A stretch of 64,000 nt of DNA, taken from contig CAWCDQ010000017.1 of the NCBI GenBank assembly GCA_963794305.1, forward strand, positions 80,522 through 144,521. Reading direction: 5' to 3'. This DNA comes from an uncultured Acidobacteriota bacterium. Lineage in GTDB: Bacteria > Acidobacteriota > Vicinamibacteria > Vicinamibacterales > CAVVIG01. Position 1 is the stretch's first letter. Every line of letters starts with the position of its first letter. The notes beneath the pieces are model-generated. The model had not been told where the DNA came from. It saw only the letters and a list, made by a program, of their open reading frames with translations, and searched no databases. A program made the translations under genes and the position numbers. Shown here one piece after another: positions 39,677-44,994 of the stretch.

Positions 39677-40497
39677 GGCCGCGCGAGGTCCAGCGTCATT
39701 CCCGATCGCAGCACGTGAAATGCAAGGCCGGTCCCCGCGGCGATCGGGCTGGACGAAGCCGGCGGCAGTTTCGCGCCGCGCGCATCGATCACGATGACTG
39801 CGCTCTTGCCGACGACCTCCATCAGCGTGCCTTGCAAGACGACGGCGGTGCCTTCATCGATGCCGACGCCGACCAGCGCTGGATGATCCAGCACGACGCT
39901 GATCAGCCGGCTCTCACGCTGACGGGCGAGGAAATGCTGATCCACGATCACGTCGGGCCACAGCCCGAGACCTGGCGCGGTCGCCGTCGTTCCGGCGCCG
40001 ACGCCCTTCAGGTCGGCCTCGCCGGTGAGCATGACCTTCGAAAGGATCGCGGCGCCGGCGCTCGTGCCTCCCACGGTCACGCCTGCCGCGTGACGCGCGC
40101 GAATGAGATCGTCGAGGCCGGTGCCGGCGATGGCGCTCATGAACCGGTTCTGATCGCCGCCGGGCATCCAGATGAGCGTGGCCGATTCAATCGCGCGCCG
40201 GGCTTCTGCCCGGTCGTCGAAGCTCACCTTCACCGCGGCTCTCGCGCCGGCCTTCTTCCACATCTCGACCGAGCTTTCACCGGCATCGGGAAGCGCCGAT
40301 GACTGCGGCAGCACGGCCACCACCGCGTTCCGGCCGCCGGCGAGCTCGAGCGTCCGCGCAACGATGGCGTCGTTGGTATCGCCGCCGCCAACCGCCACGA
40401 TCGCGCCGTCGGCGCCCGCCGCGGCCCACGTCGGTTTGACGAGGCCGGCGGCGAGACAGGCGCCGGCGACGATCAACGCGACCGCGTAACGTCTCAT
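39673..40497 (-). CDS. cyanophycinase (peptidase S51) with signal peptide
   Basis: Intact 274 aa. Leader MRRYAVALIVAGACLAAGLV; IWMPGGDQNR, GGTSAGAA (Ser nucleophile), DQHF blocks. Confidence 0.8.
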   Translation of the reverse strand: MRRYAVALIVAGACLAAGLVKPTWAAAGADGAIVAVGGGDTNDAIVARTLELAGGRNAVVAVLPQSSALPDAGESSVEMWKKAGARAAVKVSFDDRAEARRAIESATLIWMPGGDQNRFMSAIAGTGLDDLIRARHAAGVTVGGTSAGAAILSKVMLTGEADLKGVGAGTTATAPGLGLWPDVIVDQHFLARQRESRLISVVLDHPALVGVGIDEGTAVVLQGTLMEVVGKSAVIVIDARGAKLPPASSSPIAAGTGLAFHVLRSGMTLDLARP

Positions 40498-40507
40498 GTC
40501 ATTTCGG

Positions 40508-41456
40508 TCAGGGAACGATCGTCATGCCGGCGCAGCTGCTCTGCGGCGCAGGATACGAGCTCTGCGTGATCGCTTTCACGACTTCCGAGGAGATGAACGC
40601 GTAGCCGGGATCGTTGGGATGCAGGCCGTCCGACGAGTAGTTCGACGGGAAGTAGCTGCGCCCGTCACACATCATGTCGATGACGGTGACCGAGGACGAC
40701 ACCAGCGGGTTGACCACGGTTTTCGACATCCCGACGGCCATGCGCTGCGCTGCCTGCCGATCGGCGAGCGAGGCGCCGGCCATGAAGGGCATGCCGGCCG
40801 CATTGGGGACGTTGAGAATGACGATCCGCGGGGAGCCCGCGACGCGCGCGGATGCCGGTCAGCAGCGTCGTATAGTCGTTGGCGAACGCTCTCACCTGCG
40901 AGTCGATGAACGCGTTCGGATCGCTCCCACCCGCCCCGCCGCCAAGCGCCGACCTGATCGTCAGGATCTCGTTCACGCCGGCAAAAATCGTCACCACCGT
41001 CGCATTGGTTTGCACGAACGGCATCTGGGTTTCGATCATGCTGCCGACGATGATGCGTCCATACATCGCGCCAAGGGCCGCGAAATCCCTGCCGATGACC
41101 GTCGTTGGAATCCCGCCGTTCAGGTTGGTGACGGTAAATCCCTGCGCCTTGAGCGCCCGCACGGTTACGGGCACGTAGCCCATTCCGTTCGGGCAGTCGG
41201 TAAAGGGCACGCATTCGGCGCTCGAACCGACCCCGGCCGCATCGCTGGCGCCGACGGCGGTATAAAAAATAGCCGAGCCCGGCGCAGGAGGTCCGCTGGG
41301 CGCCGTCGGACTTCCGTTGTCGCCCAGTCCCAGTTTGTTACAACCCGTCGCAAGAGTAACGACCGCAGCTAGTAGTCCGATCCGCCGAATTGGAGAATTG
41401 AAAGAAGCCGGAAAAAACCTGCTGCCGGTTACCCACATGTGTTGGACGCCCTTCAT
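40508..41456 (-). CDS. SGNH/GDSL-type hydrolase lipoprotein; one frameshift near 40845
   Basis: Lipobox LATGC. Block I-like AVGASDAAG, block V SDGLHPND. Fragments join at ...LLTGIRAR/VAGSPRIVILNVPNAAGMPFM.... Start is ATG 41456 or 41438. Confidence 0.7.
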
Positions 41457-41582
41457 TAGAATGGCATATTCGACCGGAGGCCGTGTCTGTATCTCTTCGC
41501 GCAGCTGAGGCAACTGGCGACCACGGCAGCGGCCGCGGCAACTGGGCTCTTCAATGTCGTCACACAGAATCCCGGGACACGC

Positions 41583-42032
41583 GTGGAGCTGAAGGCGGGC
41601 GATCCGGCTCCGGATTTCTCGCTGCCGGGATCTGATGGCCGAACTTATCGTCTAAAGGAGTTGCTGGGGCGGCCGGTCGTGATTGCCTGGTTTCCGAAGG
41701 CGTTCACTGGCGGCTGAACGGCCGAATGCCGGTCGCTCAGTTCGAGCGACGAAGCGTTGCGGCACCTGGACGTCAGTTATTTTGCCGCGAGCGTCGATTC
41801 GGCCGAGACGAACCGGCGTTTTGCGGAATCGCTTGGGCTCGTGTTCCCGATTCTGAGCGACCCGACGAAAGAGGTCGCGCGGGCGTATGGAGTGCTCGGA
41901 GCGAGCGGGTTCGCGTCGCGGTGGACGTTTTATATCGGAGCGGACGGCCGCATTCTGGACATCGACACCAAGGTCAGCGCCGCGTCCCACGGCCGCGACA
42001 TCGTCGCGAAGTTGACCCAACTCACAAGCTGA
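41583..42032 (+). CDS. AhpE/BCP-like peroxiredoxin with in-frame TGA (41715-41717) at the peroxidatic-Cys position; candidate selenoprotein
   Basis: My own translation from GTG 41583: [96 protein letters not shown].... The frame is the same before and after the TGA. Total ~149 codons, normal for this family. The start codon is uncertain. Confidence 0.65.
41732..41750 (+). promoter_or_regulatory. SECIS-like stem-loop downstream of the in-frame UGA
   Basis: GTCGCTC-agttc-GAGCGAC: 7-bp perfect stem with a 5-nt loop containing GU. The stem begins 14 nt and the loop 21 nt after the UGA. Confidence 0.45.
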
Positions 42033-42066
42033 CCGCGCCCCGCAGGGAGGTCAGGCTGGAGCGTGT

Positions 42067-44994
42067 ATGGCACTGCTCGATCGATTCCGCACTCATCCCG
42101 GTCACAAGAACCCCGACGCCGCGGCACGCCTGCAGTTCGTGCAGGAACTTCCGCTCGACGAACGCGATCTGCTGCTGGAGGTGGCGCGAGAGGATGCCGA
42201 TCCGCGCGTCAGGCGCGCGGCGGTCGCCAAGGTGATGGACCCGCCGGCGCTCGCAGGCGTGGCGAAGGCGGATGCGGACGAGCATGTCCGCAGCCAGGCG
42301 TTGTCGATGCTGCGCGACATCGCGCTCGAGGCGTTCGAAGGCCTCGGCGAGTCCGAGAGTCTGGCGGCCGTCGCCGCAATCGAGGACCCGAAGACGCTGA
42401 TCGGCATCGCGAAGAACGCGTCGCGTGAAGCGACGGCCGGCGCGGCGCTCGAGCGCGTCACCGATGGCCACGCGCTCGGTTCGATTGCCCGGCACGCGGA
42501 GCACGAGAGCGTCCGAAGGGCAGCCTTCGAACGACTGGGCGATCACAACGAACTGCTCGCGATTGCCCTCAACAGTGAGTTCAAGGATCCCACACTCGCC
42601 GCCGTCGAACGGATCACCGACCGCGCCGAGCTCGAGCACATTGCCTCGCGAGCGAAGAACAAGAGTGCCTCGAAGCGCGCGCGCGCGATTCTCCGCGAGA
42701 TGGACGAGCGCCTTGCCGCCGAGGAGCAGGCGGCTCGAGAGGCTGCCGACGCCGCGGCCGCCGCGGCGCTGCCACCGGTCACCGAAGCCGGCTCCGCCGG
42801 GACCGCGGCGCAGGAGCAGGACGCGGCCCGCGACGCTGAGCAGGCCCGCGAAGAGGCGGCACGCGCTGAAGCCGAGCGGCAGGCACGCGAGGCCCGCGAG
42901 ATCGCGGCGGCGCCCCGCGCGGATCTGTGCGATCGCATCGAGAAACTCCAGGGCGAGAAGGCGCTGGAGGAGCTCGAGATCGCGACGGCCGAGTGGGAAG
43001 GCATGCCGGCGCTCGACGACCAGGCGGCCCACGAAGAGCTGACGCGCCGCTTCGAGCGCGCGGTTCGCGCCTGCCAGAAGCGCCACGCGGAGTGGAGAGA
43101 CATCGAGCGGCGCCGCTCGCGGCTGAGGGAACTGGCCGAGGAGGCTGGACGCGCATCCGCGATGGAAGATCTGCAGGCCGCGCGGAGACAGTTCGCGGCC
43201 ATCCGGCGTGAGTGGCACGATCTGGGCGCCGGGCTGATCAGCGATCCGGCGGTCACCGAGCGCTACACGGAAGCCCAGACCGCGTTCGCCGCGCGAGACG
43301 CGGCCGCGCACGAGCAGGATCAGAAGGCTCGACGCGAGGCGCTGATCCGCGCGCAGCAGCTGACCGGGCGCATCGAGGCGATCGCCAACGCGTACCGATC
43401 TGACGCTGAAGAGCGGAGAGCGCGCGCTCAAGGAGATCCGTTCGGCGCTCTCGTCCGTGCCCCAGCTGCCATCGAAGAAGGACTACGACGAGATCGTGCG
43501 GCGGCTGAAGGCGTCGCAGACCGCGCTCATGCCGAAGGTGCAGGAACTGCGCGACGTCGCCGACTGGCAGCGCTGGGCAAACGTCGGGATCCAGGAGCAG
43601 CTGTGCGAGAAGATGGAGGCGCTCAAGTCCGTTGAAGATCCGGAGGCGATCGCCAAGCAGGTGCGCGATCTGCAGCAGCAGTGGCGTCAGGCGGCCGACG
43701 TTCCTCGCGCGCAGGGTGAACTGCTCTGGAAGCGATTCAAGACCGCGCACGACGAGGCGTGGACGCGGTGCGAGGCGCATTTCGCCGCGCAGGCCGAGGC
43801 GCGCGGCGGCAACCTCGCGAAGAAGATCGCGCTGTGCGAACGCGCCGAGGCGCTCGCCGACTCGACCAACTGGATTCAGACCGCCGACGAGATCAAGAAG
43901 CTCCAGGCGGAGTGGAAGACGATCGGCGCGGTGAGTCGCGGTCAGGAGAAGTCGATCTGGGAGCGCTTCCGCAGTGCCTGCGATCGCTTCTTCACGCGGC
44001 GTCACGCCGACCTGGCCCAGCGGAAGACGGTGTGGGCCGACAATCTCGCGAAGAAGGAAGCGCTGTGCGCCAGGGCCGACGCCCTGAAGGATTCGACCGA
44101 CTGGGATGCGGCCGCGCTCGAGATGAAGCGGCTGCAGGCCGAGTGGAAGACGGTCGGCCCGGTAAAGAAGAGCCGCTCGGAAGCGCTGTGGCAGCGGTTC
44201 CGCGGCGCCGCGGATCATTTCTTCGCCCGCTACGCCCAGCGCCACGACATCGCGCTCGGCGAACGGGTTGCGGCGCGCGAGGCGATTTGCGCGGAGATGG
44301 AAGCGCTGGCCGCGCCAGTCGGTCAGTGCGCAGTCGCCGAGCCGTGTCAGTGCGTCGGTCCGGCGGTCGCACAGCGGAATCAGTCGACAGATGCGACGGT
44401 CGCTCAGTCGGCGGTGGACAGTCCCGAATCCGCAATCCGCGATCCGCAATCCGCAATCGAGCAGTCCCCAGCCGAGCCGCCGGCCGATCTGATGCAGACG
44501 GTGAGAGCTTGCGGGGCCGATGGCAGACCGAAATCGCATCGCGCGGCGTGGACCGCGATCGCGCGATGGCGCTCGACGACCGCTTCGCGAAGGCGTTTGC
44601 CGCCGTGATCCAGCGGTGGCCCTCCGTGTTCGGCGGCTCCGATCTCGATCCCGACGCGAACCGCCGCAAGATGGAGACGATCGTCCAGCGGATCGAGGCG
44701 CTCGCGAAATCGATCGGGGGACCGGCGTCGGCGGCCGCGGACGCGGCGTTATCGCCCACGACCCGTCTGGCGGCGATGCTGAAGGAGGCGCTGGCGGCCA
44801 ACACGATCGGCGGCAAGGCCGACGACGACAGCCGTCTGCGCGCGGCGGGCGACGAAGTGCGGCAGGCGCAGGCGACGCTGTCGCGTATCGGGCCGGTTCC
44901 CGATCAGGTGAGGCGGGCGCTCGCGGATCGTTTCCAGCGCGCCACCCGCCGCATCTCCGACGCGACGCAGGCGAAGGCTACTGGCCGATCTTGA
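42067..44994 (+). CDS. HEAT-repeat + DUF349-repeat protein (~975 aa); two frameshifts (~43393, ~44505)
   Basis: N-terminal HEAT-like repeats (DADPRVRRAAVAKV, DADEHVRSQALSML, HESVRRAAFERL). Repeated DUF349 signature (LWKRFKTAHDEAW, IWERFRSACDRFFTRR, LWQRFRGAADHFFARY). Fragments join at ...RIEAIAN/DLTLKSGERALKEIRSALSSVPQLPSKKDY... and ...ADLMQTV/SLRGRWQTEIASRGVD.... Confidence 0.7.

Follow-up and report, generated by a model that had tools for sequence, protein, structure and literature searches.

On the forward strand of the 64-kb window, by which the whole stretch of 64,000 nt analysed here is meant, a peroxiredoxin gene was found next to a GDSL-lipase and a DUF349 gene. Its minimal coding sequence (41583..42032, forward strand) extends from a GTG at 41583 to the terminal TGA stop (42030..42032, forward strand) and in translation comprises 149 codons, including the candidate selenocysteine (Sec) codon. 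The latter is an in-frame UGA (41715..41717, forward strand) at residue 45, the peroxidatic site of the segment P38-K-A-F-T42-G-G-U45. The frame is the same on either side of this TGA, the translation of 41583-42032 beginning with VELKAGD and ending with LTQLTS before the stop. Four residues past the candidate Sec lies Cys49 (TGC, 41727..41729, forward strand; U-T-A-E-C), which by analogy with related enzymes is likely to act as the resolving cysteine. It is invariant in close homologues and missing from some distant members of the family that carry the TGA.

With Cys placed at the stop, the 149-residue product matched the Pfam families AhpC-TSA (PF00578; 7.8e-31, 107 bits against a cut-off of 26) and Redoxin (PF08534; 2.2e-23, 83 bits against a cut-off of 26.6). 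An earlier note, made from the letters of this DNA, had placed the in-frame TGA in the column of the catalytic Cys and had proposed an alignment with Cys-containing homologues as a check. Two lines of comparison agree with this placement: HMMER alignments place the stop opposite the peroxidatic Cys of the solved BCP-type peroxiredoxins 5epf and 2ywn, and when 27 close full-length homologues were aligned, the peroxidatic Cys of PxxxTxxC fell in the column of the stop. In the latter alignment, 25 of the 27 homologues share one conserved active-site segment. Arg113, which matches the R of 'kRtTF' in 5epf, is invariant among the 28 sequences aligned, and the window protein thus possesses both the PxxxTxxC/U motif and the conserved Arg. 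When solved relatives were ranked by single-sequence HMMER matches and by a profile search of PDB sequences, the closest were of the BCP/PrxQ type (5epf, 2ywn, and 3drn), with AhpE of Mycobacterium tuberculosis close behind. No NCBIfam model reaches its cut-off with the window protein, and the gene is therefore not annotated as a selenoprotein.

The start of the gene can be placed at two sites. GTG 41583, the start given in the earlier note, is indeed the first canonical start codon of the frame, but the conserved N-terminal segment of the family continues in frame upstream of it, to 41460. Relatives begin with ATG, GTG or TTG at a conserved site ([M/V/L]-x-L-x-x-L-R-x-x-A-T-T), where the window has CTG 41487; a CTG at this position was also found in three other loci (L134, L138, and L148). 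The N-terminal extension that begins with this CTG (LYLFAQLRQLATTAAAAATGLFNVVTQNPGTR; 41487..41582, forward strand) is in frame and may be translated. Six nucleotides upstream of CTG 41487 lies GGAGG (41476..41480, forward strand), which resembles a Shine-Dalgarno sequence and may function as one. The segment that follows the conserved start is hydrophobic and, in many relatives, signal-peptide-like. Another ATG further upstream, at 41461 (MAYSTGGRV), is out of frame in the window and in frame in a Cys-containing orthologue (locus L213), relative to which a 1-nt deletion has caused the shift. This deletion is common to all those same-species contigs described below (L001-L010) that cover the site and is therefore real, and because the upstream in-frame ATG has been lost in the window lineage, its N-terminus differs from that of the Cys orthologue. 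L213 has ATT where the window has GTG 41583. The GTG may be a new start, giving a product of 149 residues without the extension; both GTG 41583 and CTG 41487 are possible starts.

The TGA codon in same-species contigs and in relatives

An exact look-up with the 91-aa ORF that follows the TGA returned 12 contigs from independent metagenome assemblies, which bear SPAdes NODE_ and MEGAHIT k141_ names and include one NCBI record. The same look-up with the 44-aa N-terminal fragment gave no match on record. Ten of the 12 contigs (L001-L010, mostly from short-read assemblies), a set chosen by its identical C-terminal protein, were read. With 94-98% identity to the window, they belong to the same species. 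All ten carry the TGA together with an identical hairpin; TGC or TGT in independent sequence, which the earlier note had named as speaking against its proposal, was thus not encountered. The neighbouring differences among the ten contigs are all third-position changes (ACT/ACC, GAA/GAG, and ATT/ATC). In each of the ten loci, gene callers reported the 91-aa fragment only.

The same contigs inform on the other gene disruptions of the window. Three 1-nt insertions of the window, at 40502, 40842, and 43390, disrupt the adjacent GDSL-lipase and DUF349 genes and are missing from the same-species short-read contigs. Since these contigs lack the insertions and carry the TGA, the frameshifts of the window can be attributed to assembly errors and the TGA cannot. 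The earlier note had considered that the TGA does not result from the error process behind the frameshifts; the three insertions that were checked, all of them specific to the window, support this view. When the window was scanned for further in-frame TGAs with coding-like sequence on both sides, no convincing second selenoprotein gene emerged.

Many relatives share the codon. A degenerate DNA pattern corresponding to F-P-K-A-F-T-x-G-TGA-T identified at least 120 metagenome loci, a set that was picked for TGA and is hence not informative on the frequency of this codon. In nearly all of them the peroxiredoxin frame remains open for about 105-115 codons past the TGA, at identities down to approximately 35-40%. 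An unbiased ratio of TGA to Cys codons was obtained from the best 80 relatives, with one genome per GTDB species, of which 79 possess the motif. Among these species representatives, 50 of 79 were found to have TGA and 29 of 79 TGC or TGT. The TGA forms are from the Vicinamibacterales and other Acidobacteriota, the Solibacteraceae, the Verrucomicrobiota/Opitutales, the Planctomycetota/Pirellulales, and one Acidimicrobiia MAG. The best match among these representatives is 74-76% identical, and the species of the window is not among them. A rough neighbour-joining tree of 81 sequences, analysed by Fitch parsimony, suggests about 10 or more switches between Sec and Cys.

For the 104 codons after the TGA, dN/dS values between the window and other TGA forms amount to 0.14-0.33, which indicates selection on a sequence that would be left untranslated if the UGA terminated. 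An outlier at 0.58 is locus L138, in which the frame is open for 446 codons past the TGA and the terminal stop is apparently missing.

A hairpin present only where the codon is TGA

The TGA is followed by a 7-bp stem, GUCGCUC/GAGCGAC (41732..41750, forward strand), which on the basis of its folding, its covariation, and its specificity for the TGA form is a candidate bacterial SECIS core. The arms GTCGCTC (41732-41738) and GAGCGAC (41744-41750) enclose the 5-nt apical loop AGUUC (41739-41743, forward strand), with a G at loop position 2 followed by a U. Coordinates and letters are as described in the earlier note, which had reported a perfect 7-bp stem with an AGTTC loop. The stem begins 14 nt and the loop 21 nt from the TGA. 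A published bSECIS model comprises an apical loop of 3-9 nt, a stem of 4-16 bp, a G in the first two loop positions, a UGA-to-loop distance of 16-37 nt, and a minimum free energy (MFE) of -7.5 kcal/mol or below (PMC13188914). The window hairpin agrees with the model in four of four respects (a 5-nt loop on a 7-bp stem, a G at loop position 2, a spacing of 21 nt, and -12.3 kcal/mol), which includes the spacing that had been considered suitable for a bacterial SECIS. Folding of the region, also proposed previously, gave a divided result: the hairpin alone, at -12.3 kcal/mol, has a z-score of -3.2, and 0 of 200 shuffled sequences fold as well, but the whole 61-nt stretch is unexceptional for a region of 65% G+C (z = -1.44).

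When the TGA and the following 60 nt were folded with RNAfold, a 7-bp hairpin at +18 to +36 was found in the large majority of TGA-form loci, the consensus being GUCGCUC-CGUGA-GAGCGGC. RNAalifold predicted no consensus structure and no pairs for the heterogeneous alignment of 108 sequences; as this set mixes subfamilies with hairpins in differing register, pairs were counted directly. The count was based on 108 distinct sequences in a gapless alignment anchored on the TGA, with helix columns 18-24/30-36. Standard pairs occupy 84.4% of the helix cells, as compared to 67.6% after shuffling, and 0 of 500 shuffles reach the observed value; when the helix is slid by 1-3 columns, 30-62% of the cells pair. 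The covariation score is 0.428, against 0.182 for shuffled alignments and values not above 0.224 for the slid helix. Changes on both sides were found in six of the seven stem pairs. Some of the compensatory changes alter amino acids, as in L024 (GGCGAUC/GAUCGCC, encoding A-I-R-E-I-A) and L011 (GCGUACC/GGUACGC), so that conservation of S-L-R-x-S-G does not account for the stem. An extended lower helix (columns 7-13/43-49) pairs in only 52.6% of the cells and is not supported.

A clear link emerges between the hairpin and the identity of the codon. Among the TGA forms (50 genomes), all seven pairs are formed in 48 and six of seven in the remaining 2, with a mean local MFE of -11.1 kcal/mol, whereas the TGC/TGT forms (29 genomes) have 1-6 pairs, never 7, and a mean local MFE of -4.7 kcal/mol (Mann-Whitney p = 6e-17 for the pair counts). 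The 48 of 50 TGA forms with complete stems also dispose of an objection raised in advance, namely that relatives might have the stop and no conserved downstream hairpin. The Cys orthologue L213 (P0007) illustrates the difference at short distance: it has TGC, its DNA is 88% identical to that of the window, and the order lipase-Prx-DUF349 is syntenic, but the site of the hairpin reads GUCACUG-AGUGC-GAACAGC and is unable to pair. The hairpin is thus a conserved, covarying element that occurs in TGA forms only. Searches of the whole window against Rfam gave no match at the gathering thresholds, and a permissive scan of 41600-41900 gave a single hit at chance level, on the other strand; there is no general model for bacterial SECIS elements that applies here.

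Decoding of the UGA

UGA is a normal stop codon in the window, where TGA is the commonest ordinary stop, ending 13 of the 26 well-supported ORFs as well as the peroxiredoxin gene itself, and an internal UGA therefore needs local recoding. None of selA, selB, selD, and tRNA-Sec was found within the 64-kb window, in which there is no tRNA of any kind, and tblastn searches of the window with approximate probe sequences of Escherichia coli SelA, SelB, and SelD gave no match. In two distant TGA-form members of the family (L059 and L072), the neighbouring gene encodes the C-terminal part of SelB, with the Pfam domains SelB-wing_2 and SelB-wing_3 above their cut-offs and a match to positions 325-577 of TIGR00475. 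Two further candidates for parts of the Sec machinery were rejected. A tRNA-SeC called by ARAGORN in another relative (L192:16896-16983) was considered a false positive, as a long ORF on the opposite strand spans it and Rfam tRNA-Sec gives no match there. A SelD-like hit in L019 corresponds to a generic protein of the AIR-synthase family, with scores of 72 bits for selD (cut-off 125) and 96 bits for hypE (cut-off 252). Sec users are on record among the Acidobacteria (3 selenoprotein families, 4 selenoproteins; PMC1794560). Publications linking Vicinamibacter to selenocysteine were also searched for, and nothing relevant was retrieved.

Several explanations other than Sec have to be weighed. 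The TGA might be a sequencing or assembly error in which one base of a true TGC or TGT was miscalled; the window does hold assembly errors in the form of the three insertions mentioned above, and most full-length homologues in databases have Cys at this position. This explanation is refuted by the same-species contigs, ten of ten of which show TGA amid natural synonymous variation, and the excess of Cys among database proteins reflects an ascertainment bias, because gene callers cut the TGA forms into fragments; the chance that a miscall is involved is practically nil. Alternatively, a nonsense mutation may have been fixed in the lineage and the gene may be dead. The 1-nt deletion that puts ATG 41461 (MAYS...) out of the peroxiredoxin frame would fit such decay, as would the lack of Sec machinery within the 64 kb. 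The relatives speak against this: in 50 of the 79 species representatives, drawn from several phyla, and in at least 120 metagenome loci the same codon is TGA and the ORF downstream of it is intact, and the dN/dS values for this part are low. Nor would decay preserve the hairpin in the TGA forms and remove it from the Cys forms. Furthermore, the within-species substitutions are third-position changes, in a part of the gene not constrained by the look-up, and GTG 41583 and CTG 41487 are still possible starts, so that a pseudogene is very improbable.

UGA reassignment occurs in some uncultured bacteria; the codon could accordingly be read as a standard amino acid without any Sec machinery, either in a reassigned code (Trp or Gly) or by near-cognate read-through. 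Such a reading is at odds with the use of TGA as the stop of half of the well-supported ORFs and of the peroxiredoxin gene. An enzyme with Trp or Gly at the peroxidatic site would be inactive, which is hard to reconcile with the purifying selection on this protein. In addition, a hairpin in this position, the G[U/G] apical loop of which lies 21 nt past the UGA, is what characterises SelB-dependent recoding (PMC13188914), and selB is found beside two family members. A standard amino acid at this site is therefore highly unlikely as well.

Taken together, the sequence comparisons argue strongly, with a probability of about 0.93, for a BCP/AhpE-like thiol peroxidase that would have Sec at its peroxidatic residue, and SelB-dependent recoding of UGA 41715 by the putative SECIS at 41732-41750 is the best-supported way of decoding it. 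In the proposed mechanism, a ribosome arriving at UGA 41715 would encounter the mRNA hairpin 41732-41750 as a bacterial SECIS, the apical loop AGUUC of which would recruit SelB-GTP carrying Sec-tRNA(Sec). Sec would then be inserted instead of termination, and translation would run for 104 more codons to the TGA at 42030. Peroxides would be reduced by the selenol of U45, which shares the PxxxTxxU pocket with Arg113; Cys49 (U-x-x-x-C) would probably resolve the selenenic acid as a selenenylsulfide, which may in turn be reduced by a thioredoxin-type reductant. The Sec insertion, the selenenylsulfide, and the reductant are inferred from the established biology of BCP-type peroxiredoxins and of bacterial Sec decoding, and the genome from which the window derives would be expected to encode selA, selB, selC, and selD.

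Relation to known selenoproteins

Peroxiredoxins (Prx) of the COG1225/Bcp family with the TxxU motif have long been known, from 2001-2005 onwards, as an abundant bacterial selenoprotein family (PMC1088965, PMC9312934), and the novelty expected by the earlier note was therefore too high. Reviews list Prx selenoproteins with the PxxxTxxU motif (PMC9312934, PMC13188914), and five Cys-to-Sec events have been listed for Prx as part of a 'dynamic' picture (PMC1794560), with which the switches suggested by the neighbour-joining tree agree. The window gene has the defining features of this family and leaves known selenoprotein biology unchanged. The clade to which it belongs was not found to be named in the literature on Prx selenoproteins (PMC1088965, PMC1794560, PMC9312934, PMC13188914).

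It is conceivable, though we consider it rather less probable than the opposite, that the clade constitutes a distinct, separately uncatalogued subfamily of BCP/AhpE-like peroxiredoxins in which several features come together. Its members may share one motif and, in many cases, a signal-peptide-like N-terminus, and the window lineage may either use a CUG start or have shed the export signal. The Sec form may outnumber the Cys form, as in the 50 of 79 species representatives, and the hosts may be mostly from aerobic soil phyla (Acidobacteriota/Vicinamibacterales, Verrucomicrobiota, and Planctomycetota). About ten or more switches between Sec and Cys may have occurred, each with gain or loss of the same 7-bp SECIS. 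Such a subfamily may be without an NCBIfam selenoprotein model and would therefore be annotated as truncated ORFs in thousands of MAGs.

The relevance of the locus resides primarily in annotation and in comparison. In this gene, as in hundreds of its relatives from soil MAGs, gene callers separate a short N-terminal piece from a C-terminal 'redoxin' fragment of 91 aa; as a consequence, protein catalogues lack the active-site residue, and the Cys form seems commoner than it is. If the proposed decoding is correct, the Vicinamibacterales would be added to the lineages that use Sec peroxiredoxin. The Sec and Cys orthologues, with 88% identical DNA and a SECIS hairpin only where there is a TGA, represent a natural experiment, and such pairs of loci may be helpful to study SECIS gain and loss and a possible advantage of Sec in oxic soils.

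Like the Prx COG1225/Bcp selenoproteins, the window gene encodes an AhpC/TSA fold with a predicted Sec in place of the peroxidatic Cys in PxxxTxxU, has a bSECIS-like hairpin just downstream, and has widespread Cys homologues. Repeated switches between Sec and Cys are another common feature, with at least 10 in the tree of the window clade and 5 listed for the family (PMC1794560). The window clade differs in being mainly from soil Acidobacteriota, Verrucomicrobiota, and Planctomycetota and in its hydrophobic N-terminal extension.

Among individual proteins, PrxU (NF040737) has Sec at the peroxidatic position of a peroxiredoxin, as proposed for the window protein; PrxU of Eubacterium acidaminophilum was reportedly shown to be a Sec peroxiredoxin by experiment, in work by Sohling and colleagues in 2001. 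PrxU is of another subfamily and from an anaerobic Firmicute host, and with 50.9 bits against a cut-off of 270 the window protein was rejected as a member of this equivalog. The best matches are to the BCP/PrxQ type (E. coli NF006960; 5epf, 2ywn, 3drn, and 3hjp), with E = 1e-14 for a single sequence and 2e-22 for the profile. Proteins of this type have the same PxxxTxxC pocket, followed at short distance by a second Cys, which is at +4 in the window protein (U-T-A-E-C) and at +5 in 5epf (C-T-K-E-A-C), but they use Cys and not Sec; at 81.3 bits against a cut-off of 140, the window protein is related to BCP and falls outside the E. coli BCP equivalog. M. tuberculosis AhpE (Rv2238c; 1xxu, 1xvw, and 5id2) provides the next-best solved relatives, with a profile E-value of ~1e-19. 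It has the FP.AFTG.C motif pointed out in the earlier note but is a 1-Cys peroxiredoxin that uses Cys, and the better match to BCP-type chains (2e-22 versus ~1e-19) together with the conserved Cys49 at +4 led to the rejection of AhpE-type membership.

The window hairpin can finally be compared with the SECIS elements of E. coli fdhF and fdnG. There is no sequence similarity between them and no Rfam match, and for the window hairpin SelB binding is proposed. Like these elements, it is located within the coding sequence soon after the UGA and presents a small apical loop in which a G is followed by a U.

Gene order and length variation at the peroxiredoxin locus

Correspondence is seen between the locus that encodes the peroxiredoxin with TGA at its catalytic codon (Sec form) and that of its Cys-encoding orthologue. 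Window positions 39900-44300 and L213, the contig that carries the Cys orthologue, share one gene order, namely NUDIX, minus-strand GDSL lipase, peroxiredoxin and DUF349 (plus strand), and at both Sec and Cys loci DUF349 begins 35-48 nt past the peroxiredoxin stop codon. Since the gene order is the same, the two loci are orthologous, and the exchange between Sec and Cys occurred in situ. Some TGA forms from metagenomes (L018, L080) carry insertions of approximately 10-20 residues directly past the SECIS region, for example '...SLRASGRTKSFIVELESGNEIDLPASAGSG...', which suggests a variable loop at this point.

Start codon and sequence differences in the window

In the N-terminal region of the window gene (41461-41582), CTG is present at 41487, where members of this peroxiredoxin family usually start; GGAGG is located 6 nt 5' of it, and CTG likewise occupies this position in the relatives L134, L138 and L148. 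An upstream ATG (MAYS...) is in frame in the Cys orthologue but out of frame in the window because of a 1-nt deletion, which is common to every independent contig spanning the site. Further downstream, ATT of the Cys orthologue corresponds to GTG at 41583. Either the window gene uses CUG initiation, or its N-terminal hydrophobic segment has been lost.

Comparison with several short-read contigs from its own species shows 1-base insertions in the window at 40502, 40842 and 43390, which are assembly errors of the window. They disrupt the minus-strand GDSL lipase gene (~40508-41513) and the DUF349 gene (from 42067), the latter being intact in the same-species contig L001 (972 aa). Three additional bases (TCC) at 41290-41294, found relative to all six contigs with listed indels (L002, L004-L008), fall in the N-terminal part of the minus-strand lipase gene and are an in-frame length polymorphism that causes no frameshift.

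Catalytic residue and selenocysteine genes in metagenomes

Two close, full-length metagenome homologues have neither Cys nor Sec at the catalytic position, namely, P0002 (85% identical) with Ser and P0006 (81% identical) with Arg. Codons for Ser (TCA) and Arg (CGA/AGA) are one base away from TGA, and both proteins could be inactivated derivatives of the Sec form or reflect sequencing errors.

An ARAGORN tRNA-SeC call at L192:16896-16983, on a further contig, was rejected, as it lies within a long opposite-strand ORF and was not matched by the Rfam tRNA-Sec model; the call is probably spurious, made in coding DNA that is rich in G+C. On two metagenome contigs, the C-terminal part of selB (L059:2-883 and L072:644-1021), encoding SelB winged-helix domains, adjoins a peroxiredoxin that belongs to the same motif family and has the TGA form, with approximately 1.1 kb separating the two genes in L059.
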